A stretch of 64,000 nucleotides of DNA, from NCBI GenBank assembly GCA_977862235.1, contig OZ374557.1, positions 1 to 64,000 on the forward strand, read 5' to 3'. Both the position numbers and the translations under genes were made by a program. The notes under the pieces are model-generated. The model was not told where the DNA came from and did not search any database. It saw nothing but the letters and a program-made list of their open reading frames with translations. The DNA is from Dudresnaya verticillata. Lineage: Eukaryota. How positions within the stretch are numbered: position 1 is the stretch's first letter; the number at the start of each line of letters is the position of its first letter. Of the stretch, positions 1 through 19,726 are shown piece by piece.

Positions 1-1314
1 AAAACCCCTAAACCCCTAAACCCCTAAAACCCCTAAAACCCCTAAACCCCAAACCCCTAAAACCCCTAAAACCCCTAAACCCCTAAACCCCTAAACCCCT
101 AAAACCCCTAAACCCCTAAAACCCCTAAACCCCTAAAACCCCTAAACCCCTAAACCCCTAAACCCCTAAACCCCTAAACCCCTAAACCCCTAAACCCCTA
201 AACCCCTAAACCCCTAAACCCCTAAACCCCTAAACCCCTAAACCCCTAAACCCCTAAACCCCTAAACCCCTAAACCCCTAAACCCCTAAACCCCTAAACC
301 CCTAAACCCCTAAACCCCTAAACCCCTAAACCCCTAAACCCCTAAACCCCTAAACCCCTAAACCCCTAAACCCCTAAACCCCTAAACCCCTAAACCCCTA
401 AACCCCTAAACCCCTAAACCCCTAAACCCCTAAACCCCTAAACCCCTAAACCCCTAAACCCCTAAACCCCTAAACCCCTAAACCCCTAAACCCCTAAACC
501 CCTAAACCCCTAAACCCCTAAACCCCTAAACCCCTAAACCCCTAAACCCCTAAACCCCTAAACCCCTAAACCCCTAAACCCCTAAACCCCTAAACCCCTA
601 AACCCCTAAACCCCTAAACCCCTAAACCCCTAAACCCCTAAACCCCTAAACCCCTAAACCCCTAAACCCCTAAACCCCTAAACCCCTAAACCCCTAAACC
701 CCTAAACCCCTAAACCCCTAAACCCCTAAACCCCTAAACCCCTAAACCCCTAAACCCCTAAACCCCTAAACCCCTAAACCCCTAAACCCCTAAACCCCTA
801 AACCCCTAAACCCCTAAACCCCTAAACCCCTAAACCCCTAAAACCCCTAAACCCCTAAAACCCCTAAACCCCTAAACCCTAAACCCCTAAACCCCTAAAC
901 CCCTAAACCCCTAAACCCCTAAACCCCTAAACCCCTAAACCCCTAAACCCCTAAAACCCCTAAACCCCTAAACCCCTAAAACCCCTAAACCCCTAAACCC
1001 CTAAAACCCCTAAAACCCCTAAACCCCTAAAACCCCTAAACCCCTAAACCCCTAAACCCCTAAACCCCTAAACCCCTAAACCCCTAAACCCCTAAACCCC
1101 TAAAACCCCTAAACCCCTAAACCCCTAAAAACCCCTAAAACCCCTAAACCCCTAAACCCCTAAAACCCCTAAAACCCCTAAACCCCTAAACCCCTAAACC
1201 CCTAAACCCCTAAACCCCTAAAACCCCTAAACCCCTAAACCCCTAAACCCCTAAACCCCTAAACCCCTAAAAACCCCTAAACCCCTAAAACCCCTAAACC
1301 CCTAAACCCCTAAA
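1..1314 (-). repeat. Telomeric repeat array (CCCCTAAA)n, i.e. (TTTAGGGG)n on the G-strand
   Basis: Continuous 8-bp unit from base 1 with the C-rich strand 5', as expected at a left chromosome end. Homogeneous over ~140-840; A4/A5 variants at both extremes. Confidence 0.97.
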
Positions 1315-2613: not shown

Positions 2614-2630
2614 CCTTGTCGAGACTGGAG

Positions 2631-2823
2631 CCGGACAGCACCGTAAGATTACGACGCTATCCGGTTCTTGACGCGCGCGGCGGTGAGCCGTTAGCAGGAT
2701 GGCGCCGTAGGATTACGGTGCTATCCGGTTCTTGACGCGCGCGGCGGTGAGCCGTTCGCGGATACGGTTGCGGCGGTTAGGGCCTCGCGTCGGAGAGCAC
2801 CGTAATATTACGGTGCTATCCGG
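2631..2823. repeat. Cluster A: three 34-bp palindromes (2631-2664, 2695-2728, 2790-2823)
   Basis: Example: TCGGAGAGCACCGTAATATTACGGTGCTATCCGG. Central 4 bp are AGAT, GGAT and ATAT. The cluster begins 18 bp upstream of the ATG at 2613. Confidence 0.9.
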
Positions 2824-3480
2824 TTCTGAATCCGGATCGGATCCGGATCGGATCCGGATTCTCTGCGGCGAACGGTAGGATCGAGGGTGTGGCTTTCGCG
2901 GTGTTCGCACGCGGTTCGGGTAAGTAGTCGCGTCGCGGCGGCGCTGTCGGCAACGATAACTCTCGCGCCCGCACGCAACAGTGATGCGCTTGCGCCGTAG
3001 TGATGCGCTTTCGCCTCGGAGTGTGCGCGGGCGGACTGCGCGGGCGTTTTGCGCGCGGCGGAAGCAAGGTGGGGTGTAGCGTGCAAAGGTTGTGGCGGTG
3101 CGCGAGATGGGCGGGAAGGGCGTGCAGAGCAGTCTTTCGTGTTGCAGGGAGCCGGCGTTCGCGGTGTCGGATCGGGGAGGAGGGAGCGCGGCACTGCGAG
3201 AGTGTGCGAGTTGAGATGAGCGCGGGGCGTTGGGGTGGGCGAAGTCGCGGTGCAGTGGTTGAGAAAAGAGTCGGGGGGGCGGACAGTGCACGCTCGGCGC
3301 TCTTATGTTCCGCCCCAAACCGGCGTCGAGTGTCGTCGGTGATCTGGATTTTCAAAAGATCGCCTTTGCAGGACACGTGGGCTCCCCTCCGTGGCTGCTT
3401 TTTACTTTTTTGTATTTATGCGCCGCACTCCTTGCCGCCCTTGGCTACTTTTGGTCACCGGTTTCCGTTCCGTTACTCCC

Positions 3481-3675
3481 ACACATACCCGCACACACAC
3501 ACACCGCAACGCCCGCTTCCCCCGCAACACCCGCTTCCCCCGCAACACCCGCTTCCCCCGCAAAACAAACACACGCCACAACGCCCGCTTCCCCCGCAAC
3601 ACCCACACACACCCGCACAAAAACACACCACAACGCCCGCTTCCGCAGCAACACCCACACACACCCGCACGCACG
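3481..3675. repeat. CA-rich 18-bp tandem repeat
   Basis: CCGCAACACCCGCTTCCC units interspersed with (CA)n. Confidence 0.85.
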
Positions 3676-3681
3676 CTACCG

Positions 3682-4511
3682 CTGTGAATCTCCCGCGCGA
3701 GCTCATCTGCCACTGCGTCTGGGCACCCGCAATTCGTACAGAAGCGCTCACCGACGCAGAAGAAATAGCATCCCTTCAATCAGCACTGCTCAATCTCCCA
3801 TCATATGCTGTCCTGGTCTTTACAAGCAGGACCGGGATGGAGCAGGTTGGTCATCATGTACTTGAGCTGGCGAACCACGACTCGGAACTCTCTGCTCTCT
3901 TGTTGAAAGGCTCTGGTGTGCGCATAGCAGCGCTGGGTAGGGATGCAACTGCTGCCATTGACTGCCTTGGCGTCTCAGCCAACCTGGTCCCACTGACAGC
4001 TTCACCAAACGGACTGGTGCAATTTCCTGCGGCGGACGAGTCGTTGCGTGGTACATCAGTGCTATGCCCTGTACCGACAGTGAAAGGGATACCAGAGCCA
4101 CCGGTTGTACCTGAGCTTCTGAGCGCTCTGAATCAAAGTGGCTTTGACGTAACGACATTGCCGGCCTATGGAACCCGAGCAGTGAAACGCCAGGTGCTTC
4201 GCAGAGAATTGACAATGCTAGAAACTGGGGGGATTGACGCAGTCGCATTTTCCAGTGCCGGCGAAGCATACGCGCTTGCTACTGCTTTGACTGAACAGGA
4301 AAGGGCGAATTTCGTGGAGAGCGTTCGTGCAGGGGAGATAATACTGGCAGCGCATGGCCCGGTTACAGCACAAGGTGTCCGGGACGCTCTCGGTGACGTT
4401 GAAGTTAGCGTGAGCGCAGACGTTTCAAGCTTTGACGGACTGGTTAAAGTTTTAGTGCAGGCTTTCATGGAACGGGAACGCCAAAGCGGCCGTTTGGTCA
4501 TGCCAAGATAA
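3682..4511 (+). pseudogene. hemD: Uroporphyrinogen-III synthase (HemD/UROS)-like, apparently 5'-truncated
   Basis: Motifs VFTSRTG, IAALGRD, LVP..ASPNGLV, VLCPVPTVKGIPEPPVVP, AYGT, IDAVAFSSAGE, AAHGPVTA and SSFDGLV match cyanobacterial/plant-type HemD. The normal N-terminus is replaced by the CA-rich repeat. Confidence 0.8.
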
Positions 4512-6989
4512 AAGCCGATGACTGGGATGAGATCGAGGCTGAGTGACAAGATTGGGTCTATGCCAGTCAGAATTTATTGACATTTGCGTTAATGGCACGT
4601 TCGACGAGCCCACCGCGTCTTTGCAAATGGATGCCTTCAGGTGCCCTTCTATGGCAAAGGACTTGTAGCCAAATAGTGAAGGATGTAATGCGTGTGTATT
4701 AGGGCATCTGTCAGTTGCACCTTCAGATGCTTTTTGAATCCTCACAGGTCGTTTCCAGAGCGCGCACACTGACTCTACGTGTACTGTATGAATGCGACTG
4801 GCACTCAGAAGGCGAATCAAGCAGTAGGAAATTCAGAAAGCCGTTATTGAAGGGCATGAGAGAAAAGGGAACACTGCTTTCCAACTCGCACACAACTTTC
4901 CAGGGATCCGCACCGGCACCATCAACAGACCACCACAGCATTTCGGACAATTTCCATCCCCGTTGCACCGCATACCCACCAGAGAGGCTCCCGCCCATGC
5001 TCACCCAAGCGAACACATTGTCGCCCACGCCGACATCTGGCGGATTGGTGCCCAAGCTCGTGGCGGTGTGGGCTGCGTCGGACGGCACGTTCTCAGAAGC
5101 GGTAGATAGATTTCAGGTAGATATATCTACCCATCCATTCTACGGAGCTACTGTGTCTAAATCTGCTTCCGTAGAGAGCGTTTGCTTCATGTTGTGATGT
5201 GCAGCCAGGCCTTCAGAGGTGGTTTAGGGTATGTGGTTTCGGTAGAACTGCTGTTCTCATCTTGAATTTCTTTCCGTGTTGAGAATCGTCAGAGATTTGT
5301 GTGGCACGAAAGGCACCATTATCAATTCCAAAACCCCTATCTGCATCAAGGTTCGTCCTCGATAGAGACGGCTGGTCAACGGGGGAGATTGGCAAAAGGG
5401 CTGGTATCCAAGCTATATAGCACCTATCACAACTGCACCACAAAACGATTTGCGACTTGTTCTGAGTCCAGCTTCGGATAAGCGCTAGGTATGAGATGCC
5501 TTCGCTTTGGACCTGCATATTGGCACCAAAAAGGGTTCAGAACCTCGGGATTGTCAAAGCAGAGAACACTTCATTGAGTGCTTTGATTTTGACGCGGAGC
5601 ATTCACGGCAGAGCATTGCTGCAACTGCTGAAACACGGACTATGTATGACCGTAATTGCCTCTAGCATAGACGCAACTCTCTCCCTGCGCACTTCCATTC
5701 CACCCCTATTCACAAACAGAGTATCTGCCACATAAGGTAGAGATCTAAAACTCTCTTCCCATTTCCAGCGCGGCCTCCAATGCTACTTCCCGATCTCCTC
5801 CCATCGCCTTCGCCAATCCCCTTAGACAATCGGCCCTTGCCACAGTTTGATCCAGCGTTTGGGAATCTGACATGCTAAGATCATCATCTTCACCACCACC
5901 AGCTTCTGCGATAAACTCTTGGGAGTTCGGTAAAGAGTAACCCGTGCTGCCACATGACATATTGGAATGTCTTCAGGTACAATGCACTGGCTTATTTCAG
6001 GTTTCTCCTAACCGGCGCAACGCTCGACCAGTTTAGAAAGTACTAGTAGTCGGTTGCACATCATCTTCATATATTCCTACGGCACTTCGCAGCTCTTAGC
6101 GGCTGCTGCCGGGTCAACCTATCCGACGTCGAGGTAAAAAGCGCGCTGACGTTCGAGGAGGTGCATTTGACCCCACTCGCGAGGGACCGGACCAGCTATG
6201 CTTTTCATAAGCATGAAGGGGCGTTTAACCCGTTCTCAGGACTTGACACAACGACCAAGACCTCGAACATCATCGTCGGGAACAAGACTGCACTTTCTCG
6301 CGGGAAGGTGGATGTTAAGTACTACAACGTCAGGGAGAGCGCCGAGGTGTACTACCTGGTCCCGAGCCCCCATGCTGTGTATCGAATCGTCACCGCTGGT
6401 GACGCCAAGATTGTTCGATGAGGGTTGTAGATAGTTCGGAACAGCATGTTCCCACGCATCCTAAGCTGCTTGCATGAAGCAGCCAGAACTAAGTCGTTCT
6501 CGAGTTGGCTTTCTGCCGCTTCCTCATCCACTAAGCCACCACGTCTGCTCTGCAATCTCCATCTCCACCATGTAGTCCGCTTAGATTAGTACTCCGTGAT
6601 AGCGTCAGTGCATTGTTATCGATATAGCCTCGCCTCCGACATCGTTTATCCTCATGCATATACAAGTAGCGTTCTCGTCGCTCTCACGCACTCAACACTG
6701 CGCATACGATGCGAAAGTAGTGTTCGACGACAGTGCTGTGTAATAGAGTGCCATTTACAACTCTTTCCCGTGTGACAACCATATCTTAATGTCTCGATAT
6801 CTCGTGTTGGACTTCTGTTCCCAGAACAGACGTACGCTCTTTTCTTACTACAGTCCGCCGCACGTCTTGCAGCTGCTGCAGAGCTGCTTCTTCTTCCACA
6901 AGTTTCGCGCTTCGTTTGTTCGCTCGGCGCCCTTCACCATCTTATTTGCCGGTCTGCTCAGCCCTTGCTGACCGTGAGAGGGTAGTCGA

Positions 6990-7582
6990 CTGAAACAGGA
7001 AAGCGTCCGATGTGGAACTGGCTCTTTCCTGAAGCTGTATCAGGTGCTCCTTCTCACGACGCCCAAGAGCTATACCGCCACGTTCAAACTCGTGCTTGAG
7101 AAATCTCGCCATAACCACGTCCTCATCAGATAAGAATCTCGCACGATCGGCGGCGTTGCGCAGATTGCGTAGGTGATCGTCATACAGTCGATCTAGGGGA
7201 TCATATAGGGTGTAGTCCGCGATGAGCTCCTGCAGAACTGAAGAGACTTGCAGAAATGAGTCATCTGCTTGCTGGACAGACTCCAGGTTCGGGTGGACAT
7301 TGCGACACAGCTCTGCGGCATCCAAGACCGAACAGAGGCGGTCTGACAGGTCGTTGAAGAGCGCAACTGCGGATGAGCACGGATTCGATCCGCAAGCTGC
7401 AAGCAATCTGATACGCATGCAGAAGCTATCGGTCGCCAGTGCGATGCAGAGTGGAGCCCGGGCATGCCAACCTGTCCAGGACAATCCGGGCCTCGCTTCC
7501 CGACGATCCTTGGGAAGAAGTCAAATGACCGCGGCCTCCCAAGTGCAATCCTAGACAGAGTCTGGGCCTTCCTTCTAAGCAT
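6990..7582 (-). pseudogene. Mitochondrial intermediate peptidase (peptidase M3, MIP/Oct1) N-terminal fragment
   Basis: FNDLSDRLCSVLDAAELCRNVHP...LY..L...EFERGGIAL resembles the MIP N-terminus. Frameshifted near the start; no HEXXH catalytic region follows. Confidence 0.75.
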
Positions 7583-7733
7583 GGTGAGGATATCGACTGC
7601 AGGATACTGGTAAACCCATATCCGATCGCGTTGTTCGGCCAGAGGAGGCCCAGCTCGGAACTAACACTCCGTTTGGGCCTGCTGCGGAGTCGCTGCCAGT
7701 GTGGCAGCGCCTTCCCAGGAATATTGCCAAAAT

Positions 7734-8048
7734 ATACCAGCTCTTGTAGAAACGACGCTTGACCTCCTCAGAGATATGCTCGGCTCAAACGGTCGTCAGC
7801 GAACGCAGGTCGTATGGGATTTCAGTGAGGCCCACAACGCCGATGGCCACGACTGGTGGAGTTTCAATGACAGTCACAGCCTCGACAACCTCCTTCTTGT
7901 GCAGCTTGGAACCCGGCTTGTTAACATCGCGGACGATATGGGTCGTACCGGCCTTGTAGACCATGAAGGCGGTGATGTGGCACGGATTCTTGGGGTCATC
8001 CCTTGGAAAAGACTTGACCTTGCCGCGATGGCGAGCCGCGTGCTTCTG
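7734..8048 (-). pseudogene. RPL3: 60S ribosomal protein L3 fragment (not in the ORF track)
   Basis: Manual translation gives [64 protein letters not shown]...LRSLTTV*AEHISEEVKRRFYKSWY. The conserved Trp is TGA (7785-7787). Both ends are missing. Confidence 0.93.
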
Positions 8049-11000
8049 CGCTCGACGCCCCCGAGCTAGCGTTCTGCGTAATCAGCCTTCATTCGTTCAA
8101 TTGTCTCTGTGGGTTGCATTAGCACGGCTACCATTGCCATCTCCGGCGCGAAGATGGACGACACACGAACCAAATCCCGTTCGGTCAATTTCTGGCCAGC
8201 GTCGCTGGTCGGGCGCAGCACAACATCCAAGTAAAACAGCAGCGCAGCCGACTTGCTCTCGTTGGTCGACAGCGCCAGTTCCGGGTCGACCACGTCACAT
8301 TCCACACACGGAGACAAGCTTTTGGATACACAACTGGCGCGCTCTTTCGACACATTCAGGACATCACGCTACTGCACAGCCAAAACGGTCTGCATTGGCA
8401 TGTGGCAGGATCTTCTGATGCTCCCAGCGCGTGATCAACATAGCGGCGTGCGTAGTCAAAGATGCCGTCCAGATGCACAGCATCTGTGACGCAGAAGACA
8501 GGGCGTTGAGCTTAGTGCTAACCGCAACACCAGTTGTTTCATTGTCGATGTTATGAAGCAACCTATTGCGAAACGGGGGGGCGGGCTTGTCCGACCTGAG
8601 CAGGTGCTCAAGTCCAAAGTATGAAGTTCGCACCGGTCAGTAATTAACGCTCAGTATGAAACTGGGCATAGTCCCACACCCACCCAAATGCTAGCCATGG
8701 CCTTGGCTACCATTTCACATGCATGCTCGGAAAAAAGCACAGTATTGGTGCCTATCGGCTTGATTTTCCACTCTACTCGGTTCTTTGCGCCGTCTCCACC
8801 GTAAAGTCTTGACCCAAGTCAGTAATGCTGTCCGTTAGAGGTGCCAGGGATTCTTCGGTCTCTCACCGGTATCTGATTTGGTGTGAACTTGAGCATAGCG
8901 TCAACGTCGCGTGGTGGTCGGAGAGGCCCTGACAAGCCTAAATATGTAGTAGTTGAGCAGATTCCATAGAATGGTGAGCGACGGGTTCACACATGCCATG
9001 ATGGCATAATATCACAAACCATTACACTTTGCTTTTTGGCAAGACTCGTCAGGTCTATTCCAATCCACAGCTCTCTCTGAGGTGGCGAGAGCGGTGGAGA
9101 GGAAAGCTGGAACCGGGGCTCAAATTCCGCTCGGAGACTTTCCCAGCGAAGTGAAGTTATTGAAATGATGTCAAGCTGCTATGGGACCCTTGTCGCTAAA
9201 CGTCGTGTGCGTAATGGAACGAAACTGCAGTGCTTGCCCTTTCCTGCCAGCTACGTTTTTGCAGTCTCCGATGCCGAGACTCTCTATATTGGGAGTATCT
9301 GCAGCTGAGGTAGCAAGTGCGGACTCTAATGTGTTGTTAAGACAGTCAAGTTCAATCGACTTCGTCCATATCGCGTGCTCTTATGCGTTTTTGATCTCCT
9401 CATCGTGCGAAGCTTTGGTAATAACTTCGATTGAGAACGCACCGAGTGCGATACCGTCATTGCTTTGCCGACCGTCTTAACAACATGGCACTTTCATAGG
9501 AAATGTATGAAGTTCGCGCCGGTAATGAAGTTACACTCAAATCGCAATATAGTACCACACCCACACACACCCAACGGGCAGTCGCCGCTTCGACTACCCA
9601 ATTACAGGCAGAGTGCAACAATAGCGCAATACTGCTGTCTAGTTGCTTCATTTTTGTTCTACTCGATTGTTTGTGCCGTCTGGACCGATACGTCTTTGCC
9701 CACACCAGTTAGATTGTCCACTTGAGCTCCCACTGCTATCCCGGTCTTTCAATGGCGTTTTACCTCGTGCGAGCATGCCGACGCCGTCCCTTGCATCGAG
9801 GGACGCTTCGAATATAGTGTGGAATGATGGTGCGCTTTCGGGGTCTGCCAAGTGCGTTTCGATAATTCCAGAGTGCTGCGGGCTGTTGCAACGATGCGTT
9901 TTGCTACCACATATTCAGGACAGTACCTCTTCGGAAACCAAGTTTTCGCGCCTTCATGGCTTTCGTCCCAGGTGGTGCAAAACGTGAATGGTAGCCGTGC
10001 GTCAGAATTTTCTGACATGTGACGCTGGGTACAGCACCCAATATGTTCGTATTCAATGTCCAGCTCCTCTGGGTCTTTTGATGCAACAAAACCATAGCCT
10101 CGTGATCTTGGAGGAGTGACACGAGAGGGTATCCTTCTCAAGGCAACTCTGCAAGGAGATGCCGAAACTGACAAAAGTAGCACATAGGACTCTTTCTTGT
10201 TGATTCAGGCCGCGACAATACAGTCGTCACTACAACTTTCACAAGCTCATCTCCGCGCTTGCCCGTCGCTGACAGCAGGAGATGTGCTTTAAGCCATCGT
10301 TTGCGAGTCTCACTACATTACCACTCAGCGTATTGCCAAGAGGCTTGATATTGGTCTGATGCTCTGCCGGCTTCTCCGTTTCCCAGACCAACAAGTCTTT
10401 ATCTTCTGAAACCGCCTTTTCCTTGTCCACCCGACTGCGTATTCGAAACGTCAAGCCACTAACCACGATATCCAAAAACGAAATTGTAGCCTTGGAGGTG
10501 ATCCCCTTTTCAGCAAGCGCAGACTTGAGATCTATATAGAATTCTGCCTCTGCGTGGATATGGCAACTGGGTCGTCAGGCCATGCGCCGATGCTAGTATA
10601 TCCAATGGTTGCGTGAAACGGCTGCTTCCGTCAGGTCGAATAGGGTCTGCACCACACCATGCACCGCACCGTAAATGAGCCGACGTTGAGTAAACCCCAC
10701 GGATGCGTAGCGGAAGCCCCTCTGCTGATAGCAAAAGTTTTACGAGCTCGGCAATACGGCAATTCCTCTGTTCGAAGCAGGGTCATGTCCCCGGATGCCA
10801 GCGGCTGTATCGACGTTTCCAAGAATGACGCTCACGGGGCTAGGCACACCGAAGTACTTTCCAGAGGTGAAGCGGCACATTTGATTCAGCGTATAAAGCG
10901 CACCCTCACACGCAACAGAACGTGCAGTTCGCCAGTCTTTAAAGCGATGAAATCAATTCCTTGTGCCGACCCGCGTTGCACCCGATGCGCTGCCTCTTCG

Positions 11001-11841
11001 ATCGCGGCTCAGGAACGGTTTTTTGTGCGATCATGGCGCAGCACGCTACGTCTTTTCTTTTCCCCTCTCTTGCCGTTCTTTCAACATCACCTTCAGGGAT
11101 TAGCGGGCCAAACGACGGTCAGTGGGGTGATCCTGTCGGTGTAACCTTCGGTGAAGCGCTCAAATACTCGGAAGGGCGAGAAGAGACCGCGCTTTGCGGC
11201 ATACATCTGCGGCAGCGGAATGTTTGACGATACGGGGCGCATCAAGTGATGCCGGACGGGGTTCGGATACGGTGGTGGGGTGGTGAGGTGACAGTCGAGA
11301 GCACGGGCCAGCACAGTCAATCTCAAACTTTCAGGCAATTTCCCATCAAAATCTAGACTCACGTACACCCTAAATCCGTCGACGCAGTGCTCTCCGTCCA
11401 CGCATGGCGCTTCCAACCCTAGTTGATCATGGGACGCGCAACTGACAGCAGCAACCGCCGTACTTCTCGTCCAACTCCTCAGCCCCCGGCCCCTCGCACA
11501 CTCCCCATCGAACGAGCACGACTCCAACTTGAAGGTGGGTTTATGCTAGCTCGACTGCACACCTGCGTGCACAAGAAGCCACCCGACGTTAGCCGCCTCT
11601 ACCGTCGCCACCAAAAACCCTCATCCGTCGCGACAAGTTATGCCATTGCGATGCCCACACGGCGACCTTCTCCGCGCCAAAACTTCAACCCGAAACACCT
11701 CAAACACGTACTCGCCAAGATGCCACACGTGTACAGAGTGTACAGTTGGTACACTGTGCACAGAGTGTAGGGCGTGTACCCGTGGACACGTGTTGCAAGA
11801 AGCGCGTGCATTGCGATGCCTTCCCGCTCAATGAATTAATG

Positions 11842-12217
11842 TACGGTGCTCTCCAGTCGAATGCCGTCCCAGCTCCACATACTCTACACCCTCAAACCAG
11901 AGAGCACTGTAATTATACGGTCCTCTCCGCTCCAACGCGTTCCCAAATCCACATACTCTACACCCTCAAACCAGAGAGCACTGTAATTATACGGTCCTCT
12001 CCGCTCCAACGCGTTCCCAAATCTACATACTCTACACTTCTTCAACCGGATAGAACCGTAATTATACGGTGCTATCCGATCCAACACCGCCCTAGCTCTA
12101 CATACTCTACACTCTTCAACCGGATACCACCGTAATTATACGGTGCTATCCGCTCCAACGCCGCTCCAGCTCTACACGCTTAAACTGGAGAGCACCGTAA
12201 TTATACGGTGCTATCCG
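11842..12217. repeat. Cluster B: tandem array of ~65-75-bp units, each carrying the 34-bp palindrome
   Basis: Copies at 11897, 11971, 12046, 12120 and 12185, all with core ATTA, plus a half site at 11842. A degenerate copy lies at 12381-12414. Confidence 0.9.
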
Positions 12218-12675
12218 CTCCAACGCCGCCCCCGCTCTCCACACGCACTCCCCCCTCCTAGGCTCTACTTCACTAAAAGACGCTTCTACAACAGTTCAAG
12301 ATACAACGGAAGTCATCTTAAGTTTACAAGGGCTTCCGGTTCACCCGTACACTAATCTCGAGCACGTGGAGACAGGGCAACCAGCAACCCTCGTAAATTT
12401 ACGGTGGCTTCCGGACTAGCCCGATCTTCATCTACAAAAATACATTCAGGTAAGCTTCCGACTCTCTCCCCGCTAACACACGCATTCAACGATAATTCGC
12501 GAGCGATTGCGTTGCGCATATTACTAACATATTCTCGCACCCAGTCCGCTTCTCTACACGATATTCACGTCCCTTTCACTAGCACGCCTTGACCTGCATT
12601 ACTGCGATGTTGTTTCCTGATTTATTCTGAACTCAACTATACTTCCATTCCGTACCAATCTCCACGTCGCATGCG

Positions 12676-15600
12676 CTACAAATCAAACACTTCCACAGCA
12701 TACCGAGAGAACTCAAGAATGCCTGGGCACCACCCAGGCTTGTCCAACACAAGCTCCTCACAGAATGCCTTCAAACCCGAGCATCTCCTGAAACGTCGCA
12801 TCCCACAATGCGCAAGCATTTCCGTGCGCCTCTCCTCGTGGCTCCAAAACGCCATCGCTAGCTGTACGGGTCTGAAGAACGGGCAGCGTTCCGACGACCC
12901 ATACTCGTTCTGTCCTCTCCTCGGACTGCCGCTGCCTACATGGAGCTTCTTCGAACCAAACGTTCGAATCGAGCACTCCGAACAACCAGCGCTGAACACA
13001 CCGCCGCGTGCCTTCCAAGGCCGTACAGTGCACTGGGCTGCATCGTGCCCCCCGGACATGCACCGGATACACTGCCGAAAATAGCAGCTGCTCGAATGCT
13101 GGCTGTTCCGGCAGGCACGGATTGACACCTTGTCACCGGGCCTCGTACGACCAAAGCAAGGCGGACACACACCAGCCAGCTTGACGGCAAGATCCCGCAG
13201 TTCCTCAACTGCTTCGCCTGCTCCACTCGCCGTGCGAACTGCAGCCACCGCGCTATCCTCCGGGGTGCACTGCACAGTTTCTTCCGTCTGTCTCTGTCTC
13301 CCTGTATTTGCCGTTTGCTCGGTTATTCCACCACCAGCCTCATGCAAACTCCTTGCTGGACGTAAGGACGGGCTCTGCTGTGAAGAACCGGTGTCATCAG
13401 ATGACGACTCGTCCAATTCGTCAATTTTCGGCGATTCCGCTGCTTCCACTATCGGAGGAAGCCAAGCGCAGTAATCACAACACCGAATGTAAGATTCCGT
13501 CCTCTCCCACACACGTTTCCTGCAATCCGAAGGCTCCTCAGGGCATCCCAAATACTGCTCAAGTTCCTTGACACGACACTTTCTCGTGTCCTCGGCCCAC
13601 CGATGAAACCTTTTCAAGGCGATCAGTGACTCCGTGTCCTTCACGTTGGCGCGGTCTGCATACTCATGATGGTACAGTACACTAACGCTCCCTGGTTTCC
13701 CGTCCCGACCAACACGCCCACCCACTTGATACAGCTCCATTAGCGATCGGCTGCTCCCAACAATTATAGTCTGAGCCACGTCGGGGGCATCGATTCCTGT
13801 ACCAAATCCTTCCGTGGCCACCATTACACACACGGAGCGCTGTGCTGTCCCGTTTCGGCCCCATTCGGCCACACTGTTCCGCCGTGCTTCAACACTCATT
13901 CCACTGTGATACTTACATATTATAATATGCGCTGTTCCCGAGAACATTCTGCTCCGCTCGAGAAGTTCATGAGCTTGATCAGCCTCGCCCTTCGTAAGCA
14001 CACACACGAGAACTTTGCCGCCACCACGCACAATAAACGCTTCACTCACTGCATGGGTGACAGCGTGTCTGATACAGTGCCCCACTTCCTCGTCAGTCGT
14101 TTTCGAAAGCCGCTCCACGGTATACATTATGTTGTCCCGACGGAGGCTGCCACGAATCACCTTCGTATTCCCGACCACGGCTCCGTTACCAGCTATTATA
14201 CGGTTCTCCAAATGTGGCGGTGCAGTGGCCGTCATCATAATGATCGGTACCTGGACACCATCCGGCCTTGCGTGCCGCATGCGTAACATACAGTTGCGAT
14301 AGTGGGCACTCAGAACAACGATGTGAGCCTCATCAACAACAACACGCATCAACTTCCCTTCTCCGTACAGTTTCCTCAGCACCGAATTATACTTTCGACA
14401 GGACACGATCTCAGGAGACGCAAGGATTATACCTCTCGGCATCAAGCGCTTCTCAACTTCGTTGTTGTCCAAGTCTTCAATATCGACAACGGGCAGCCTG
14501 ATATCATCACATCGCAACTTGATCTCCTCCCGTAGTGATCGAAGGGGGCATATAAAAATAGTCACTCCTTGTTCACTTGAAGCGGGCCCGAAAACAACCG
14601 CGGTTTTCCCACCTCCTGTCCTCAGCACTATTAATGCATCACTCTCTTTGCGCAATACAAGTTCCATTGCCACCTTCTGTTCTTCGCTTTTGAACTCGGC
14701 ATCACGGTCCCCTACAGCGTGCGCAAGGCATTCCTGTACACGCCGTGCAATTGAAGCCTCACGCTCCGCTTTGCGAGCTTCGACTGTACGGTTATCCTTA
14801 TCAGAGCGGCGACGTGCTGCATCTGACGTGAGTTCATCACCCAATCCTATAATATTATCACTTTCCTTCTTCTCGGTGTGCCGCTTTTCGTCCTCGTAAG
14901 CCTTCTTTCTCTGCTCCGATTCCGAGATTGTCGCCAAACACTTCCTTAATAGATCAGCCATCTCTTCTCGACTCATCTCAGAAACATCGCGCCCATTCGG
15001 TCGGAGACCATGCCCATTGCCGTCCAACACCCGGGCGCCCCCACTTTCCCCACCTTTGCTGTCATCTTGCCCATTCCCCTTCGAACCATGTCTCTCTTCC
15101 CCTTCATTCAGCGCCTCCTGTCCTTGAAGCTTCTGTTTGCGTGCACGTGGTAGTACGGCTCCAGCCAGGTCTCCCGACATCGCTCTTTTCACACCCTTTC
15201 CGCCACCTCCAGTTCCCAATCCGGGACCACTGCGTCCATCAGCGCTCTCTACATCCCTTCCTTGCTCCTGCGACTCTCGTTCCTCTCCAATTCCCGTTTC
15301 TGGAGGCGGCCATACTTCCACGGCGTCTTCGACTTCGCTTGCTTGTCCCGCCGAATCACAATGTTTGGGAATCGGAAGGCACCGTAATCCTACGGTGCCA
15401 TCCGGTTCCGAGGTTTGTCTGGGAACATCCACGGCCGGACCGCACCGTAATCCTACGGCGCTCTCCGGTTTGGAGGCTTGCCTTGGAAAATCCACAGGCG
15501 AACAGCACCATAATCCTCCGGTACTCTCCGGCTCTGATGCACCTCTCGGAACAGCTGAATTTTCCGGAAGCGGCCGTAAAATTACGGCGCTCTCCGGTTT

Positions 15601-18393
15601 CGACAAGCTTCCTGTCCCGCTTCCGCTGGAGAAGAGTCTGCGTTTGACACCCGAAACGGTTCGCGCCTGCACAGCCCGACTCAATCGGGAACGCCCTTCT
15701 CCTTCTTCATCGCCACCCTGAAGTTTGTTCCAATCAAAGTTCTTGTCCAAGCCGCAATCTGCGAGCCAGCAGTCAGATACTTGCTTGAACTGCTTCATGT
15801 TCCGATCATCTACCTCACCGCCACCGGCAATGTTCGGTGCGCAAGCTCCATACAGAGTTCTCGCGATATGCACAGAGTGTGCTCCCTGCACCTGCATCAC
15901 ACTTCCAAGGTCTCCACTATTCAGCGCAGCAGCATCCGAATCTCCCTTGTTGAAACCATTCAATATCTTCACGACGTAACGGAACTTCTCGTCGGTATTG
16001 GCCTTGTCGGTCGCATATCCACCAAACCACTGTCGATGTTTCTCCGCCCCATATTCTTCAGGCAGACCAAACCTCTTCCACATGTTCCCCGCGAGCTGCA
16101 GGCACCCCGATCGTGCACTAGCTGTTGGCATGAGATAGTCCATTGCCCCATCTTCGTCGACCTCGGCCGCACGCCCTGACTCCCTGTTACTGACAAGTCG
16201 GGACAACGCTAGCCTGAACTCCATCCCAACGAGAATCGCCAATTTGACCAGGTTGCTCGTAACGACATCAGGATGCTTGCTAATGACACGCATTCTCCCC
16301 CTCTTCATGTTCCTTGTCTTGTCGTAACTTGGAATTACAGCAACTCGGGGGCCACCCGGGAGTTGAATCCCACGTGGTCCGCTGACCGTATTTCTCACGG
16401 CCAAGAACCCAAGCTCCGGACCGCGACAGACATTACCACCCGCTAGATGCAAACAGGCTACCACGAGTACATGGAACTTCCTTAGTTTCGATAGCATCGC
16501 CCTTGCGCGTTTCTCGAATGCTCGTTCGTCTAATGAATCCATCTTTCTCACCGCAGAATCGACGAGATCGCGGCATTCTCTGACAATCTCAGCATTCCGA
16601 TCATCTTCCATGAATCCATACGGAATGTCTTCCTTCCTAGTGTCGTCTACCATATTCGAGAGGCGTTTCTGAAAGTCCTTTGGCAGTTCTACCCCGCAGA
16701 GAATACCAGTTCGGTCGAACATTAGGCTCACCGCCTCCTTTTGCATCTTCTTCACACAAATACCAATTTCATCAGGGCTCATGTGAAGCCCCTCCACGTA
16801 CCCGCAGCACTTGCCCACGTGCTCAGGATCGTTACATGGAAGCCATGTGTTCCTGGAGTACTCTTCATTCCGAAACCGTCGAGCCTGCAAGCAAAGGGAC
16901 TGGAGAAAATGTATCCCTAAATTCCCGTCGGCTTGATGCCTCAACTCCACCCTGGCCAACTCCTCATCACAAGTACCCTCCTTCTCAACGCTACATATGT
17001 CGATGAAAGCGCAGCAAGAACTCGCATAGGCGAGTGCAGCAAGAAATGGAGACAGATCCCTGCCCTCAGAAAATGTAACCCCCCCTCCCGCACGCTTCAC
17101 ACAAAGACAGGTTGTTAGGACGTGAGCGGCACAGAAGTGGCTGCCTTCATCCACGCTCACCCTTTCATACAACAAAGCTCTCAGCAAAGCGTGCATCGCC
17201 ACTATACATTCAGACGGTCCCGTCGGACAGCGCCGTATTTTTACGGCGCCTTCCGGTTCTTCCTGAGTCTCTTCACGATACACCTCCATCACCTTCTCAC
17301 AGGCAGAGCGTAATTCTTCACTGGCGATGAGCTCCTCACCTTCCCGAGACGCATTAATCATGCGTAGAAGTGCTAACGCTCCACGAGACACGAAGGAGGC
17401 ATACCTCTTCTCGGACTGCCTCTCTACCCAGGCAAACTCGACCTTTTGGCTCCCCGTCGCACCAGGAGGTGCTCGAACAGCGAACATTACCCTGGACATC
17501 GTCATATTGGGCCTCTGTGAGCAGCGACGGCCATGCTGGAATACGGAAAGAACGGCTTCTGTCAGCCACTTCTTCAGCTCGACTTCATCTTGGTCAAAAA
17601 CCTTCTCTCCGCGCCAGGCATCTCCGCTCAACCTGGAAGCCTCCTCCATGCTGAGATGCAGCTGCTCGAGCTTCAAATCTGGCCTCGTGCAACTTGCAAA
17701 ACGTCCCATTCTCCTCACGTCCTTCTCTTCCGGCTCTTCCACCTTCATCCTTCCTTTCCTAGCCTCGCTCAACTCCTGCAATAGAAGCTGGACATGAGAT
17801 GAACCTTCCCCGCTTGCCCCGGCTTCTCTATTCCCGGTACACTCCGCTGCTCCGCCATCCTTTAGTAGAAACGTATTTCCTGTGCCAGTTCCCTTAAACA
17901 GCTTCTGGCACTTTACACCTCCGAGGCCCTTGATCTCCGCAAGACTTATGGAGTTTCCAGAAGAGTTATGTTCGGCGTCATAATGTTTCTTCAACGAGGG
18001 AGAAGACAAAGACAAGAACGAACATTGAGGGCAGGGAATGCACTCCATAACTCTTAAAAATGGAATCCTGCGCACGGCTCTTCGAGAAGAGCTTCGAACT
18101 GAGCTCCCAATGTACACATGGTAATCCTCTTCAGAAGCCGTGCGCACACAGGCCCTGTTGACGGTATTCCATGACTTGTACACTTCCTTCGATTCGATGC
18201 GGGTGACCCGTTTCGACGGCTGACACTTCTGCAAATGCCTGAACAGATTGTCCTGTCCTTGCACACCGAAGAATACGGCATGCTGGCATACGACGCACAG
18301 AAGCTCCGCGACCTCCGGAATAAGACGTAAGCCATATTCCTCGAGCTTCAACTCCGACTCCTGGACCCCATCACCCCCGTTAAGACCATTCAT
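12676..18393 (-). CDS. Telomere-linked RecQ-type helicase fused to Zn fingers and a tyrosine-recombinase-like domain (~1905 aa)
   Basis: First ATG is at 18393 (the ORF track starts at GTG 18402). Helicase motifs: TGGGKT (~14610), DEAH (14323-14334), TAT, YHSG, VATEGFGTGID, QVGGRVGRDG (~13710) and RQC-like CR...CCDYC. N-terminal CVVC..H..C and CPQC..H..H fingers. Central GGNVCRGPEL / YDK / KHR / GAHSVHIARTLY. Cys/His-rich C-terminus. The helicase call is firm; the recombinase call is motif-based. Confidence 0.88.
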   Translation of the reverse strand: MNGLNGGDGVQESELKLEEYGLRLIPEVAELLCVVCQHAVFFGVQGQDNLFRHLQKCQPSKRVTRIESKEVYKSWNTVNRACVRTASEEDYHVYIGSSVRSSSRRAVRRIPFLRVMECIPCPQCSFLSLSSPSLKKHYDAEHNSSGNSISLAEIKGLGGVKCQKLFKGTGTGNTFLLKDGGAAECTGNREAGASGEGSSHVQLLLQELSEARKGRMKVEEPEEKDVRRMGRFASCTRPDLKLEQLHLSMEEASRLSGDAWRGEKVFDQDEVELKKWLTEAVLSVFQHGRRCSQRPNMTMSRVMFAVRAPPGATGSQKVEFAWVERQSEKRYASFVSRGALALLRMINASREGEELIASEELRSACEKVMEVYREETQEEPEGAVKIRRCPTGPSECIVAMHALLRALLYERVSVDEGSHFCAAHVLTTCLCVKRAGGGVTFSEGRDLSPFLAALAYASSCCAFIDICSVEKEGTCDEELARVELRHQADGNLGIHFLQSLCLQARRFRNEEYSRNTWLPCNDPEHVGKCCGYVEGLHMSPDEIGICVKKMQKEAVSLMFDRTGILCGVELPKDFQKRLSNMVDDTRKEDIPYGFMEDDRNAEIVRECRDLVDSAVRKMDSLDERAFEKRARAMLSKLRKFHVLVVACLHLAGGNVCRGPELGFLAVRNTVSGPRGIQLPGGPRVAVIPSYDKTRNMKRGRMRVISKHPDVVTSNLVKLAILVGMEFRLALSRLVSNRESGRAAEVDEDGAMDYLMPTASARSGCLQLAGNMWKRFGLPEEYGAEKHRQWFGGYATDKANTDEKFRYVVKILNGFNKGDSDAAALNSGDLGSVMQVQGAHSVHIARTLYGACAPNIAGGGEVDDRNMKQFKQVSDCWLADCGLDKNFDWNKLQGGDEEGEGRSRLSRAVQARTVSGVKRRLFSSGSGTGSLSKPESAVILRPLPENSAVPRGASEPESTGGLWCCSPVDFPRQASKPESAVGLRCGPAVDVPRQTSEPDGTVGLRCLPIPKHCDSAGQASEVEDAVEVWPPPETGIGEERESQEQGRDVESADGRSGPGLGTGGGGKGVKRAMSGDLAGAVLPRARKQKLQGQEALNEGEERHGSKGNGQDDSKGGESGGARVLDGNGHGLRPNGRDVSEMSREEMADLLRKCLATISESEQRKKAYEDEKRHTEKKESDNIIGLGDELTSDAARRRSDKDNRTVEARKAEREASIARRVQECLAHAVGDRDAEFKSEEQKVAMELVLRKESDALIVLRTGGGKTAVVFGPASSEQGVTIFICPLRSLREEIKLRCDDIRLPVVDIEDLDNNEVEKRLMPRGIILASPEIVSCRKYNSVLRKLYGEGKLMRVVVDEAHIVVLSAHYRNCMLRMRHARPDGVQVPIIMMTATAPPHLENRIIAGNGAVVGNTKVIRGSLRRDNIMYTVERLSKTTDEEVGHCIRHAVTHAVSEAFIVRGGGKVLVCVLTKGEADQAHELLERSRMFSGTAHIIICKYHSGMSVEARRNSVAEWGRNGTAQRSVCVMVATEGFGTGIDAPDVAQTIIVGSSRSLMELYQVGGRVGRDGKPGSVSVLYHHEYADRANVKDTESLIALKRFHRWAEDTRKCRVKELEQYLGCPEEPSDCRKRVWERTESYIRCCDYCAWLPPIVEAAESPKIDELDESSSDDTGSSQQSPSLRPARSLHEAGGGITEQTANTGRQRQTEETVQCTPEDSAVAAVRTASGAGEAVEELRDLAVKLAGVCPPCFGRTRPGDKVSIRACRNSQHSSSCYFRQCIRCMSGGHDAAQCTVRPWKARGGVFSAGCSECSIRTFGSKKLHVGSGSPRRGQNEYGSSERCPFFRPVQLAMAFWSHEERRTEMLAHCGMRRFRRCSGLKAFCEELVLDKPGWCPGILEFSRYAVEVFDL
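15372..15597. repeat. Cluster C: four 34-bp palindromes in frame inside the helicase gene
   Basis: Copies at 15372, 15435, 15498 and 15564 (spacing 63/63/66), cores ATCC x3 and AAAT. They encode PESAVILR / PESTGGLW / PESAVGLR / PDGTVGLR. Confidence 0.88.
17223..17256. repeat. Single intragenic 34-bp palindrome
   Basis: TCGGACAGCGCCGTA-TTTT-TACGGCGCCTTCCGG, encoding PEGAVKIRRCP. Confidence 0.8.
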
Positions 18394-18487: not shown

Positions 18488-18650
18488 CCGGACAGCACCG
18501 TAATATTACGGTGTTATCCGATTCACAGTCGCTTTCGATTTTCCTATCCGATAAGCTTCTGATTCACAGTCGCTCCCGATTCGGATGGCACCGTAACTTC
18601 ACACTGCGACTGTCAATCGGATAGCACCGTAATATTACGGTGCTGTCCGA
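18488..18650. repeat. Cluster D: two near-perfect 34-bp palindromes plus a half site upstream of the helicase ATG
   Basis: 18488-18521 and 18617-18650 (TCGGATAGCACCGTAATATTACGGTGCTGTCCGA); half site at 18581-18596. Confidence 0.9.
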
Positions 18651-18850: not shown

Positions 18851-19398
18851 CTCGCGGATCCTTCAGAGGCAACGCTGAATCGCCTGTCGCCTGCACAAGT
18901 CCGCGTGTTAGCGCGCTTCTCGTACAGAGAGGATTGTCGGAGACCGTCGCAAGACGTTGCCGTAGTCCGGTTCGCAATCGCGCAAGCCACACTCACGTTT
19001 ACTCAGACTGCGCAATGGGTGAGGGGGGGCGGGTGATCGGTGGAACTGCGTCACATCAAGTAGATATTGGAACGATCATCTGGCCTTATTGGCGGGAATA
19101 CTGTTTCGGTTATTTCGGCGTTGATGATGTGTATTCCGTAACGGCTCCTCTCGTCAAATCTGAGATACAAAGATGTCTATTCTCACGAGACATTGCACCG
19201 TTCTCGTTGTAACACCGACGGCGTTGATGCTCCGGACATTGCACCGTTCTCCTTGTATCGCCAACGGCGTCGATGCTCCGGATTGACGAACAGAATGCTC
19301 ACTGATCCGATCCGTGATCCAAAGCCGGATCTGATCTTGACTGTCTTCAGAGCCGTTTGGCATTGTGAAAGGCGTTGTAGTTCTACAACGGAAGCTGC

Positions 19399-19431
19399 CG
19401 GGAAGGACCGTATTTGTACGGCGCCATCCGG
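19399..19431. repeat. Degenerate palindrome copy, the most centromere-proximal one seen
   Basis: CGGGAAGGACCGTA-TTTG-TACGGCGCCATCCGG. Confidence 0.65.
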
Positions 19432-19500
19432 ACTTTACCTGCTAACGACTCATCCTTCCATCCAGAGCCGGGTTCTTTTAGTATTGGTCCCCTTTCCCAT

Positions 19501-19640
19501 TCATCGGTCCCCTTTCCTTTTCCATCGGTCCCCTTTCCTTTTCCATCGGTCCCCTTTCCTTTTCCATCGGTCCCCTTTCCGATTCCATCCTTCCCTTTCC
19601 CATTCCATTGGGCCCTTTCCCATTCCATTGGGCCCTTTCC
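19501..19640. repeat. 21-bp pyrimidine-rich minisatellite
   Basis: TCCATCGGTCCCCTTTCCTTT x4, then CATTCCATTGGGCCCTTTCC x2. Confidence 0.9.
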
Positions 19641-19726
19641 TATTCCTTATCTCCCGTCCCTTTCCTATTCCGCTAACCCCTTTCCTACTCAATTTAATCT
19701 CTTTACTTGCATACTCTATACTTAGA

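Follow-up and report, generated by a model that had tools for sequence, protein, structure and literature searches.

A long open reading frame (ORF) near one end of contig OZ374557.1 of Dudresnaya verticillata encodes a RecQ helicase in which a long segment separates the amino-terminal zinc fingers from the helicase core, and the question raised by this locus is what that segment does. The window analysed here comprises positions 1 to 64,000 of the contig (assembly GCA_977862235.1, forward strand). A preliminary description of the window had taken the gene to be a telomere-linked RecQ helicase (TLH), had proposed that the segment contains a tyrosine-recombinase catalytic domain, and had suggested a self-mobilising “recombinase/resolvase-helicase”. 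The results presented below point to a predicted two-domain tyrosine-recombinase fold with a highly conserved set of candidate catalytic residues, and they add a candidate DNA site, a palindrome confined to the neighbourhood of the gene. The interpretation to which a little more than an even chance is given here is that these palindromes are the substrate of the protein, a site-specific recombinase-helicase by means of which the gene would spread and would swap subtelomeric DNA.

Gene structure and position at the chromosome end

The gene (Table 1) encodes 1905 amino acids (aa) from its ATG without an internal stop. The frame and the residues quoted in the preliminary description are present; the 1908-aa track used there begins at a GTG three codons before the ATG, so that its residue numbers equal the present numbers plus 3. 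An assembly or translation artefact was ruled out by the colinear alignment of four full-length homologues. The linkage to a telomere is likewise confirmed, because the contig begins with a (AAACCCCT)n array of 161 copies with 96% matches, toward which the gene is oriented and from whose end the stop codon lies 11.4 kb away. The repeat, which reads T3-4AG4 on the opposite strand, is close to the telomeres of the red alga Bostrychia, given as TTTTTAGGGG in the available text of bioRxiv 2025.02.11.637652. No second copy of the gene is present within the window.

The order of domains in the protein is zinc fingers, the putative tyrosine-recombinase module, a low-complexity linker, the RecQ core and a Cys/His-rich carboxyl terminus. 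The Pfam families DEAD (aa 1238-1395) and Helicase_C (aa 1455-1565) score above the cut-off, the top matches among PDB sequences are BLM (E 4e-23) and RECQL5 (E 5e-19), and the core retains its helicase motifs (motif 0, Walker A TGGGKT, DEAH, III, V, VI and an RQC-type zinc site). At the amino terminus, two C2H2 fingers of the forms CxxC..H and CxxC..H..H align with those of homologues, and the OrsD family, which falls below the Pfam cut-off here, is above it in four of five homologues (P0002, P0004, P0006 and P0009). Between the OrsD-like region and DEAD, the Pfam scan of the protein finds no family.

By its layout the gene is a telomere-linked RecQ helicase like those of fungi. According to the available parts of the TLH literature, the proteins of fungi and Monosiga (M. 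oryzae TLH1, F. oxysporum TLH, S. pombe tlh1/2) likewise carry two C2H2 fingers, a conserved “TLH domain” of about 250 aa stands before RecQ, where the algal protein has its module (bioRxiv 2024.02.27.582403), and the genes are subtelomeric, have their 3' ends facing the telomere and are flanked by tandem arrays (PMC1635262). The difference from the fungal genes is that the host here is probably a red alga. As far as their available text goes, both of these sources leave the TLH domain without an assigned function, and PMC1635262 calls the function unknown; the word “recombinase” does not occur in the Fusarium preprint (bioRxiv 2024.02.27.582403). Judged from its position, the module of the algal protein would contain the published TLH domain.

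Conservation of the candidate catalytic residues

The candidate catalytic residues of the module are R657 (in GGNVCRGPEL), K692 (in YDK), R787 (in EKHR), and H839 and Y848, both of which lie within GAHSVHIARTLY and are 9 residues apart. Their conservation was evaluated across 178 aligned rows from 152 homologous proteins, made up of the best 150 of 4194 profile matches together with homologues found earlier, and counts refer to the rows that cover each residue. The alignment of homologues that the preliminary description had called for supports its residue assignment, because the Arg, Lys and second Arg are kept in 97-99% of the rows, the Tyr in 128/128 and the His in 110/128. The five residues occur all together in 106 of the 125 rows that span them, at identities of 15-30%, and they are among the best-conserved columns of the 660-aa module. 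When only six sequences with 18-27% identity are compared, 13 columns of aa 228-890 are invariant, and these include R657, K692, R787 and Y848. G653, E660, R674 and W876 are also near-invariant in the homologue alignment. R674 (16372-16374, minus strand) is invariant in all 149 rows although it lies outside the classical catalytic set, and it might be a substitute for the His of the HxxR motif, which is absent here. That His is the least strict position of the catalytic set in tyrosine recombinases.

Predicted fold of the module

A structure of aa 228-890 was predicted with AlphaFold2 from an alignment of 81 sequences (pLDDT, the predicted local distance difference test, 86.4; pTM, the predicted template modelling score, 0.85) and was compared with 48,161 chains in an exhaustive VIA structure search. 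Ranks 1-14 are occupied solely by tyrosine recombinases and topoisomerase IB, and the first row outside this superfamily has Z 6.1. The top row is XerA (Z 9.0, root-mean-square deviation (rmsd) 3.7, 162 residues aligned), and the list also contains Brujita integrase (Z 8.4), integron integrase (Z 8.3, 261 aligned, model residues 49-589), XerD (Z 8.2 and 7.8), Cre (Z 7.6, 259 aligned) and XerH (Z 7.4, 275 aligned). The alignments of Cre, integron integrase and XerH span both predicted domains, since they start from model residue 47-59 and cover 259-275 residues at rmsd 4.1-4.9, while that of topoisomerase IB is confined to the catalytic lobe (Z about 6-7.6) and starts only at model residue ~287. 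The bounds of aa ~560-890 given in the preliminary description are accordingly too short, because a core-binding domain of the Cre/integron type is predicted upstream of them, at aa ~275-510. In the model the catalytic domain carries a helical insertion of about 110 aa ahead of R657.

A separate model of just the catalytic part (aa 628-890; pLDDT 81) gives a concordant result, with ranks 1-21 held by the same superfamily and XerA at Z 9.1. Over the two models, the best rows have rmsd values of 3.4-3.7 for 144-162 aligned residues. The placement of the catalytic residues in the secondary structure fits a recombinase in both models. Single lines of evidence for the predicted fold are moderate, but jointly with the invariant Tyr they are strong, and a tyrosine-recombinase fold is on these model-based grounds regarded as highly probable.

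The top and only notable match among viral models is an uncharacterized 620-aa protein of Feldmannia species virus, B5LWN9 (E 0.0046, probability 1.0, TM 0.35). It may be the phaeovirus integrase, in which case the recombinases of phaeoviruses and of TLHs might be connected.

The homologue family

A word-index search for homologues with aa 480-900 alone was fruitless (0 of 4319 candidates scored), so that relatives of the module were reached only through the helicase region and a profile. The search with the helicase region yielded 10 matches. The whole domain order recurs in the top three (33-38% identity), and OrsD is present in two remoter proteins, one from the fungus Sistotremastrum. When 1.84 billion representatives were then searched with a profile of the module, 4194 proteins matched at E <= 0.001. 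The module is common to fungal OrsD-helicase proteins (Sistotremastrum, Claviceps) and to a telomeric gene at a locus termed L003, and Walker A and DExH motifs are found in 62 of the 81 homologues that have more than 400 aa downstream of it. As judged by sequence comparison, the putative recombinase module is not specific to this locus: a large family, with named fungal proteins among its members, has it as a conserved middle domain. In a midpoint-rooted FastTree tree of 126 domains, the algal protein belongs to an 8-sequence clade (support 0.986), away from the Claviceps and Sistotremastrum proteins.

Other searches were negative. Profile A2 retrieved no recombinase among PDB sequences, profile A4 returned solely helicases among the matches listed, a tblastn search of phages with the module gave no match, and homologue P0002 was not found in viral contigs. 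A metagenome scan by helicase motifs detected the module in 4 of 86 loci; the remainder are mostly ordinary RecQ genes, which were used as controls. Chlamydomonas RECQ3 and the mention of RecQ in Academ in a paper on Fanzor were set aside as other systems.

Palindromic candidate sites around the gene

The candidate DNA site is a lox-like palindrome of 32 bp, in which two 14-bp arms (CGGANAGCACCGTA and its complement) flank 4 variable bases, and conservation is weaker for 3-4 bp beyond each arm. When up to 3 mismatches are allowed, the pattern has 13 matches in the sequence and none in 100 shuffles. A symmetric matrix derived from these 13 sites (null maximum 11.6) finds 17 sites above the null maximum, all of which lie within 2.6-19.4 kb, with none in 3.0-11.8 kb and none in 19.5-64 kb. 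Three sites are at 2632-2822, six just downstream of the gene (11898, 11972, 12047, 12121, 12186 and 12382), five within the gene and three upstream. The sites within the gene occur where homologues vary or lack sequence, which suggests that they are kept as DNA and not as protein.

The GTA adjacent to the core is invariant in 26/26 half-sites, while the core itself varies by cluster: it is ATTA in the downstream array, ATCC in the linker, and the self-complementary ATAT at 2791, 18489 and 18618. An unbiased detector of recurrent gapped palindromes finds 4 clusters in the part at 1.3-20 kb, compared with 1 in each of two other parts. The helical phasing of the site spacings is marginal (p 0.047, from 8 hand-collapsed spacings, post hoc) and is not relied on. 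The algal palindrome was not found in viral contigs. A second and distinct near-perfect palindrome, composed of GGATCC/GATCGG units, lies at 2828-2861 and adjoins site 2791.

Palindromes at the loci of homologues

Locus L003 (positions 1-16943) contains a (CCCTAA)21 telomere, an intact homologue of 1673 aa and tandem arrays. Six GGGTCT-N3-AGACCC palindromes occur there at up to 1 mismatch, one of them within the gene, and the unbiased detector finds 4 clusters of a motif different from the algal one. Among 40 control loci that hold ordinary RecQ genes and measure at least 7 kb, the maximum is 3 clusters, and none of 60 Markov simulations of L003 reaches 4. The homologue at L003 is oriented away from the telomere, opposite to the algal gene.

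On L091, a 7.5-kb contig from the bin of a Chlamydiota metagenome-assembled genome (MAG), the homologue is bracketed by an inverted 71-bp repeat (1148-1218 and 7307-7377; 82%, E 5e-14), each copy of which is a compound palindrome and which occurs nowhere else in that MAG. A distant inverted pair of this kind is found in 1 of 40 control loci. The arrangement resembles a 6.2-kb element with palindromic terminal repeats, and the gene is single copy in the MAG; the contig is possibly a mis-binned eukaryotic one.

All three loci that combine an intact gene with at least 7 kb of DNA thus have element-specific palindromes, and each palindrome is different. These differences from locus to locus fit element-specific sites better than a housekeeping role. 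A palindrome has also been recorded beside a fungal TLH: the available text of PMC1635262 describes a conserved 23-bp imperfect palindrome within HAR-D, one of the helicase-associated repeats of Magnaporthe, compared with which the algal palindrome is longer, nearly perfect and present in 17 copies.

A possible mechanism

Catalysis by the module, its use of the palindromes and the mobility of the gene are what we infer from these observations, and the steps set out here are conditional on all three. One subunit would bind each arm of 13-14 bp, whose conservation extends out to ~18 bp, and Y848 would form a 3'-phosphotyrosine near the variable 4-bp core. If the core is counted together with the flanking A/T or TA, the overlap is 6-8 bp, which is the geometry of loxP, dif and FRT. 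Two sites would exchange strands when their cores match. Those with an ATAT core, at 2791 and at 18489 and 18618, bracket the gene and 9 kb of possible cargo, so that recombination between them could excise or invert about 16 kb, or, if it joined different chromosomes, could swap all of the DNA as far as the telomere. The RecQ part of the fusion might unwind or branch-migrate the intermediate or help to copy it. The preliminary suggestion that the gene may be self-mobilising is strengthened by the palindromic candidate sites.

Evidence against and alternative explanations

Several observations weigh against a recombinase that acts on these palindromes, and the lack of the first His and the multitude of sites with differing cores count most against a simple Cre-like interpretation. 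In the protein, the His of HxxR is absent family-wide (it is E784 here, and S, R, Q, N and L are commonest in homologues) and the stretch from R787 to H839 measures 52 residues, compared with 23 in Cre and XerD, so that both reservations made in the preliminary description hold. A set R-K-R-H-Y without the first His is typical of topoisomerase IB and protelomerases, and topoisomerase IB follows closely behind the recombinases in the structure search (Z 6.9-7.6). The Z values of 8-9 are moderately above the typical best background of the tool (7-8), the region of Y848 has pLDDT <50 in the small model (aa 628-890), the alignment by hhalign to a profile of XerC/XerD/Cre/lambda Int is weak (P 0.007-0.11), and no recombinase Pfam family is listed for any of 51 proteins. 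Foldseek gives no match at E <= 0.001 against the PDB for either model, although its list for aa 628-890 is headed by Cre structures at a non-significant E of 0.16. The tyrosine-recombinase proposal is in this way upheld by residue conservation, by the predicted fold and by the top 14 and 21 rows of the VIA searches, and lacks significance in Foldseek and Pfam. In the DNA, the pattern and the matrix were derived from the sites themselves and are circular, which is the reason why the unbiased detector was used. The 17 sites, five of them in the gene and with at least 8 different cores, are unlike a clean two-site element, and the palindromes may serve for binding or loading alone. Of 54 control loci, moreover, 3 contain a single strong palindrome, and the unbiased detector finds no recurrent palindrome at three loci with short or broken homologues (L024, L027 and L077).

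Part of this evidence suggests a different enzyme. The set R-K-R-H-Y without its first His, which is shared with topoisomerase IB, and the Z values of the latter would suit a domesticated telomere-maintenance enzyme, that is, a topoisomerase-IB-like nick-and-reseal swivel fused to RecQ, which would resolve or dissolve intermediates of recombination at chromosome ends and which the palindromes would only load or regulate; the ORF is intact. In S. pombe, moreover, tlh is induced in telomerase-negative crisis and aids recovery, according to the available text of bioRxiv 2024.02.27.582403. This explanation seems unlikely, because Cre, integron integrase and XerH match the core-binding domain as well as the lobe to which the alignment of topoisomerase IB is limited, because the palindrome sequence changes between loci, and because, as reported in PMC1635262, individual chromosome ends of Magnaporthe can do without a TLH region and many of the copies are broken. 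A dead or non-recombinase domain, whose resemblance in fold is a common helical arrangement and whose conserved residues serve only to bind DNA as in Ndc10 or MrpR, would account for the lack of a significant sequence, Pfam or Foldseek match, and both of these non-catalytic proteins with a recombinase fold do appear in the VIA lists (Z 5.0 and Z 5.2-5.4, respectively); but a Tyr retained in every row, the two Arg and the Lys retained in nearly all of them at such low identity and in the right order, and the occupation of the top ranks by the recombinase superfamily make this explanation barely credible.

Other explanations accept an active enzyme and assign a different role to the DNA. The recombinase might cross over elsewhere, with the palindromes being the sites of another element or cooperative binding arrays for the zinc fingers or the core-binding domain, which might act in autoregulation, in anti-silencing or as accessory sites of the enhancer type. 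This proposal, although improbable, is favoured by the number of sites, their tandem arrays, the presence of some in coding sequence, their different cores and the weak helical phasing noted above. Plavaka transposons of red algae provide a precedent, since the accessible text of bioRxiv 2025.02.11.637652 describes tandem inverted-repeat arrays beside a ParB-like gene. Such arrays would not by themselves explain why two symmetric arms around a short, variable, AT-rich core reproduce the geometry of a recombinase site, or why the gene is bracketed by sites both at this locus and in L091, and no transposase or other DNA-binding gene is present among the ORFs scanned at 1.3-19.5 kb. The protein could also be a hairpin-telomere resolvase, which would make 6-nt staggered cuts at perfect palindromes and seal hairpins, either to release a linear element or to cap an eroded chromosome. 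The self-complementary AATATT centre of sites 2791, 18489 and 18618 recalls telRL-type sites, whose larger inverted repeat surrounds a palindromic core of 6 bp (PMC13236599, in the text available), the catalytic set R-K-R-H-Y is compatible with this, and Borrelia ResT also unwinds DNA according to the available text of PMC5388405. The resolvase part of the preliminary description nevertheless receives little support and is considered very unlikely: the protelomerase TelK aligns with Z 3.0 and rmsd 5.0, as against Z 9.1 for XerA, no Telomere_res match is listed by Pfam, most cores are asymmetric, and the chromosome ends in ordinary telomerase-type repeats.

Features of the locus and possible cargo

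Table 1. Positions of the features at the chromosome end, in order of distance from the first letter of the window; strand is given where it applies.
Feature	Position	Strand	Basis or remarks
Chromosome-end repeat array	2..1314	+	(AAACCCCT)n; opposite strand T3-4AG4
Telomere-proximal trio of sites (2632, 2696, 2791)	2632..2822		Pattern and matrix; 2791 has ATAT core
Site-free 9-kb block between site clusters	2823..11841		Host-gene-like pieces
Tandem array of 74/65-bp units downstream of gene, six sites	11842..12413		Pattern and matrix
Intact telomere-linked helicase gene, 1905 aa	12676..18393	-	Domain order, Pfam, PDB sequence matches
RecQ helicase core, aa 1234-1642	13468..14694	-	Pfam, PDB matches, motif inspection
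Four in-ORF sites, linker aa ~933-1007, spaced 63-66 bp	15373..15596		Matrix
Predicted tyrosine-recombinase catalytic domain, aa ~533-882	15748..16797	-	Model and structure searches
Y848, predicted nucleophile	15850..15852	-	128/128 rows; pairs with XerD Y279
H839, His/Trp position	15877..15879	-	110/128 rows, Arg in 15; pairs with XerD H270
R787, candidate second catalytic Arg, without His at -3	16033..16035	-	132/136 rows
K692, candidate catalytic Lys	16318..16320	-	Kept in 148/149 rows
R657, candidate first catalytic Arg, G-x-x-x-R-x-x-E motif	16423..16425	-	148/151 rows; pairs with XerD R148 in weak hhalign
Predicted core-binding-like helical domain, aa ~274-512	16858..17574	-	Cre, integron integrase, XerH alignments
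Single in-ORF site, variable loop aa 380-390	17224..17255		Matrix
Two-Zn-finger N-terminal region, OrsD/PF12013-like, aa 31-143	17965..18303	-	Pfam E 0.005, below cut-off
Two ATAT-core sites, 96 and 225 bp 5' of start codon, half-site between	18489..18649		Pattern and matrix
Most centromere-proximal site	19399..19430		Matrix; 46-bp and 21-bp tandem arrays alongside (19189-19646)

The 9-kb block between the first two clusters of sites is possible captured cargo. It contains an ORF with a HemD (uroporphyrinogen-III synthase) domain at 2985-4511 on the plus strand, which matches Pfam positions 14-230 of 231 and lies 2 kb from the telomere, an RPL3 amino-terminal fragment at 7785-8081 and weak Nrap-like fragments at 9749-10574. 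A frame at 6942-7520, which has no Pfam match, seems to resemble mitochondrial intermediate peptidase. On the telomere side, a Pro/Ala/Lys-rich frame of 472 codons (1294-2712, minus strand) with 24- and 33-bp tandem repeats and no match in a Pfam scan starts at the first site cluster and enters the telomere repeats, as if it had been cut and then healed by telomere addition.

Relics of long terminal repeat (LTR) retroelements, together with an EMC1-like ORF, start beyond ~19.9 kb. Nested and broken Gypsy-like relics (gag, reverse transcriptase, RNase H, integrase, chromodomain) and Copia-like relics extend over 19865-58515; among them is a pair of related copies, ~69% identical to each other, of which one lies at 43-47 kb and the other at 52-56 kb. 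An Rfam scan over 1.3-21 kb gave no match.

Relation to known systems and significance

With the Xer, Cre and integron recombinases (XerA 4a8e, XerD 1a0p, Cre 1kbu, integron integrase 2a3v, XerH 5jjv) the algal protein shares the predicted core-binding and catalytic fold, the order R..E, K, R, H-x8-Y, and candidate sites with two inverted arms around a short core. It differs from them in its low identity (~10-16%), in the missing HxxR His, in the insertion and the long distance between R and H, in the fusion to zinc fingers and RecQ, and in having many sites rather than two. Topoisomerase IB and the protelomerases (TelK 2v6e, ResT) belong to the same family of catalytic folds and share the set R-K-R-H-Y; topoisomerase IB has no counterpart of the predicted core-binding domain, and TelK aligns poorly. 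Cryptons, Starship captains (DUF3435; PMC8092012) and phaeovirus integrases (PMC13236599) are likewise eukaryotic recombinases that are hard to see by sequence, and the available text of these sources does not describe them as RecQ fusions or as restricted to subtelomeres. Neither DUF3435 nor a Pfam family of the Crypton type is listed for the 51 proteins, and the single copy present here, in contrast to Cryptons and Starships, does not allow element ends or a target site to be defined.

Both the TLH family and the recombinase elements of eukaryotes (Cryptons, Starships and phaeovirus integrases) have been described before; a full-text literature search, for which most subscription papers were out of reach, found no report that joins TLH with a tyrosine recombinase. 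The present locus adds an intact and probably non-fungal enzyme together with a sharply defined candidate site. It is conceivable, at somewhat short of an even chance, that TLHs drive a cross-kingdom class of mobile elements not described before, in which a fusion of zinc fingers, tyrosine recombinase and RecQ recombines its own lineage-specific lox-like palindromes, settles chromosome ends and swaps whole terminal segments, with the host genes captured in them, from one end to another; the algal copy would then provide an intact enzyme along with its cognate site.

The finding bears on two questions about these helicases, namely the function of the TLH domain and the means by which near-identical TLH regions have spread over most chromosome ends in many fungi, and the combination of a putative active site with a candidate DNA site makes both of them directly testable. 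If the interpretation is correct, the homogenisation of subtelomeres and the shuffling of their genes would be partly directed by an enzyme, beyond passive recombination; the family, whose clusters at 50% identity number more than 4000, would offer a large and so far unused stock of site-specific recombinases; and its range would extend past fungi and choanoflagellates to algae.

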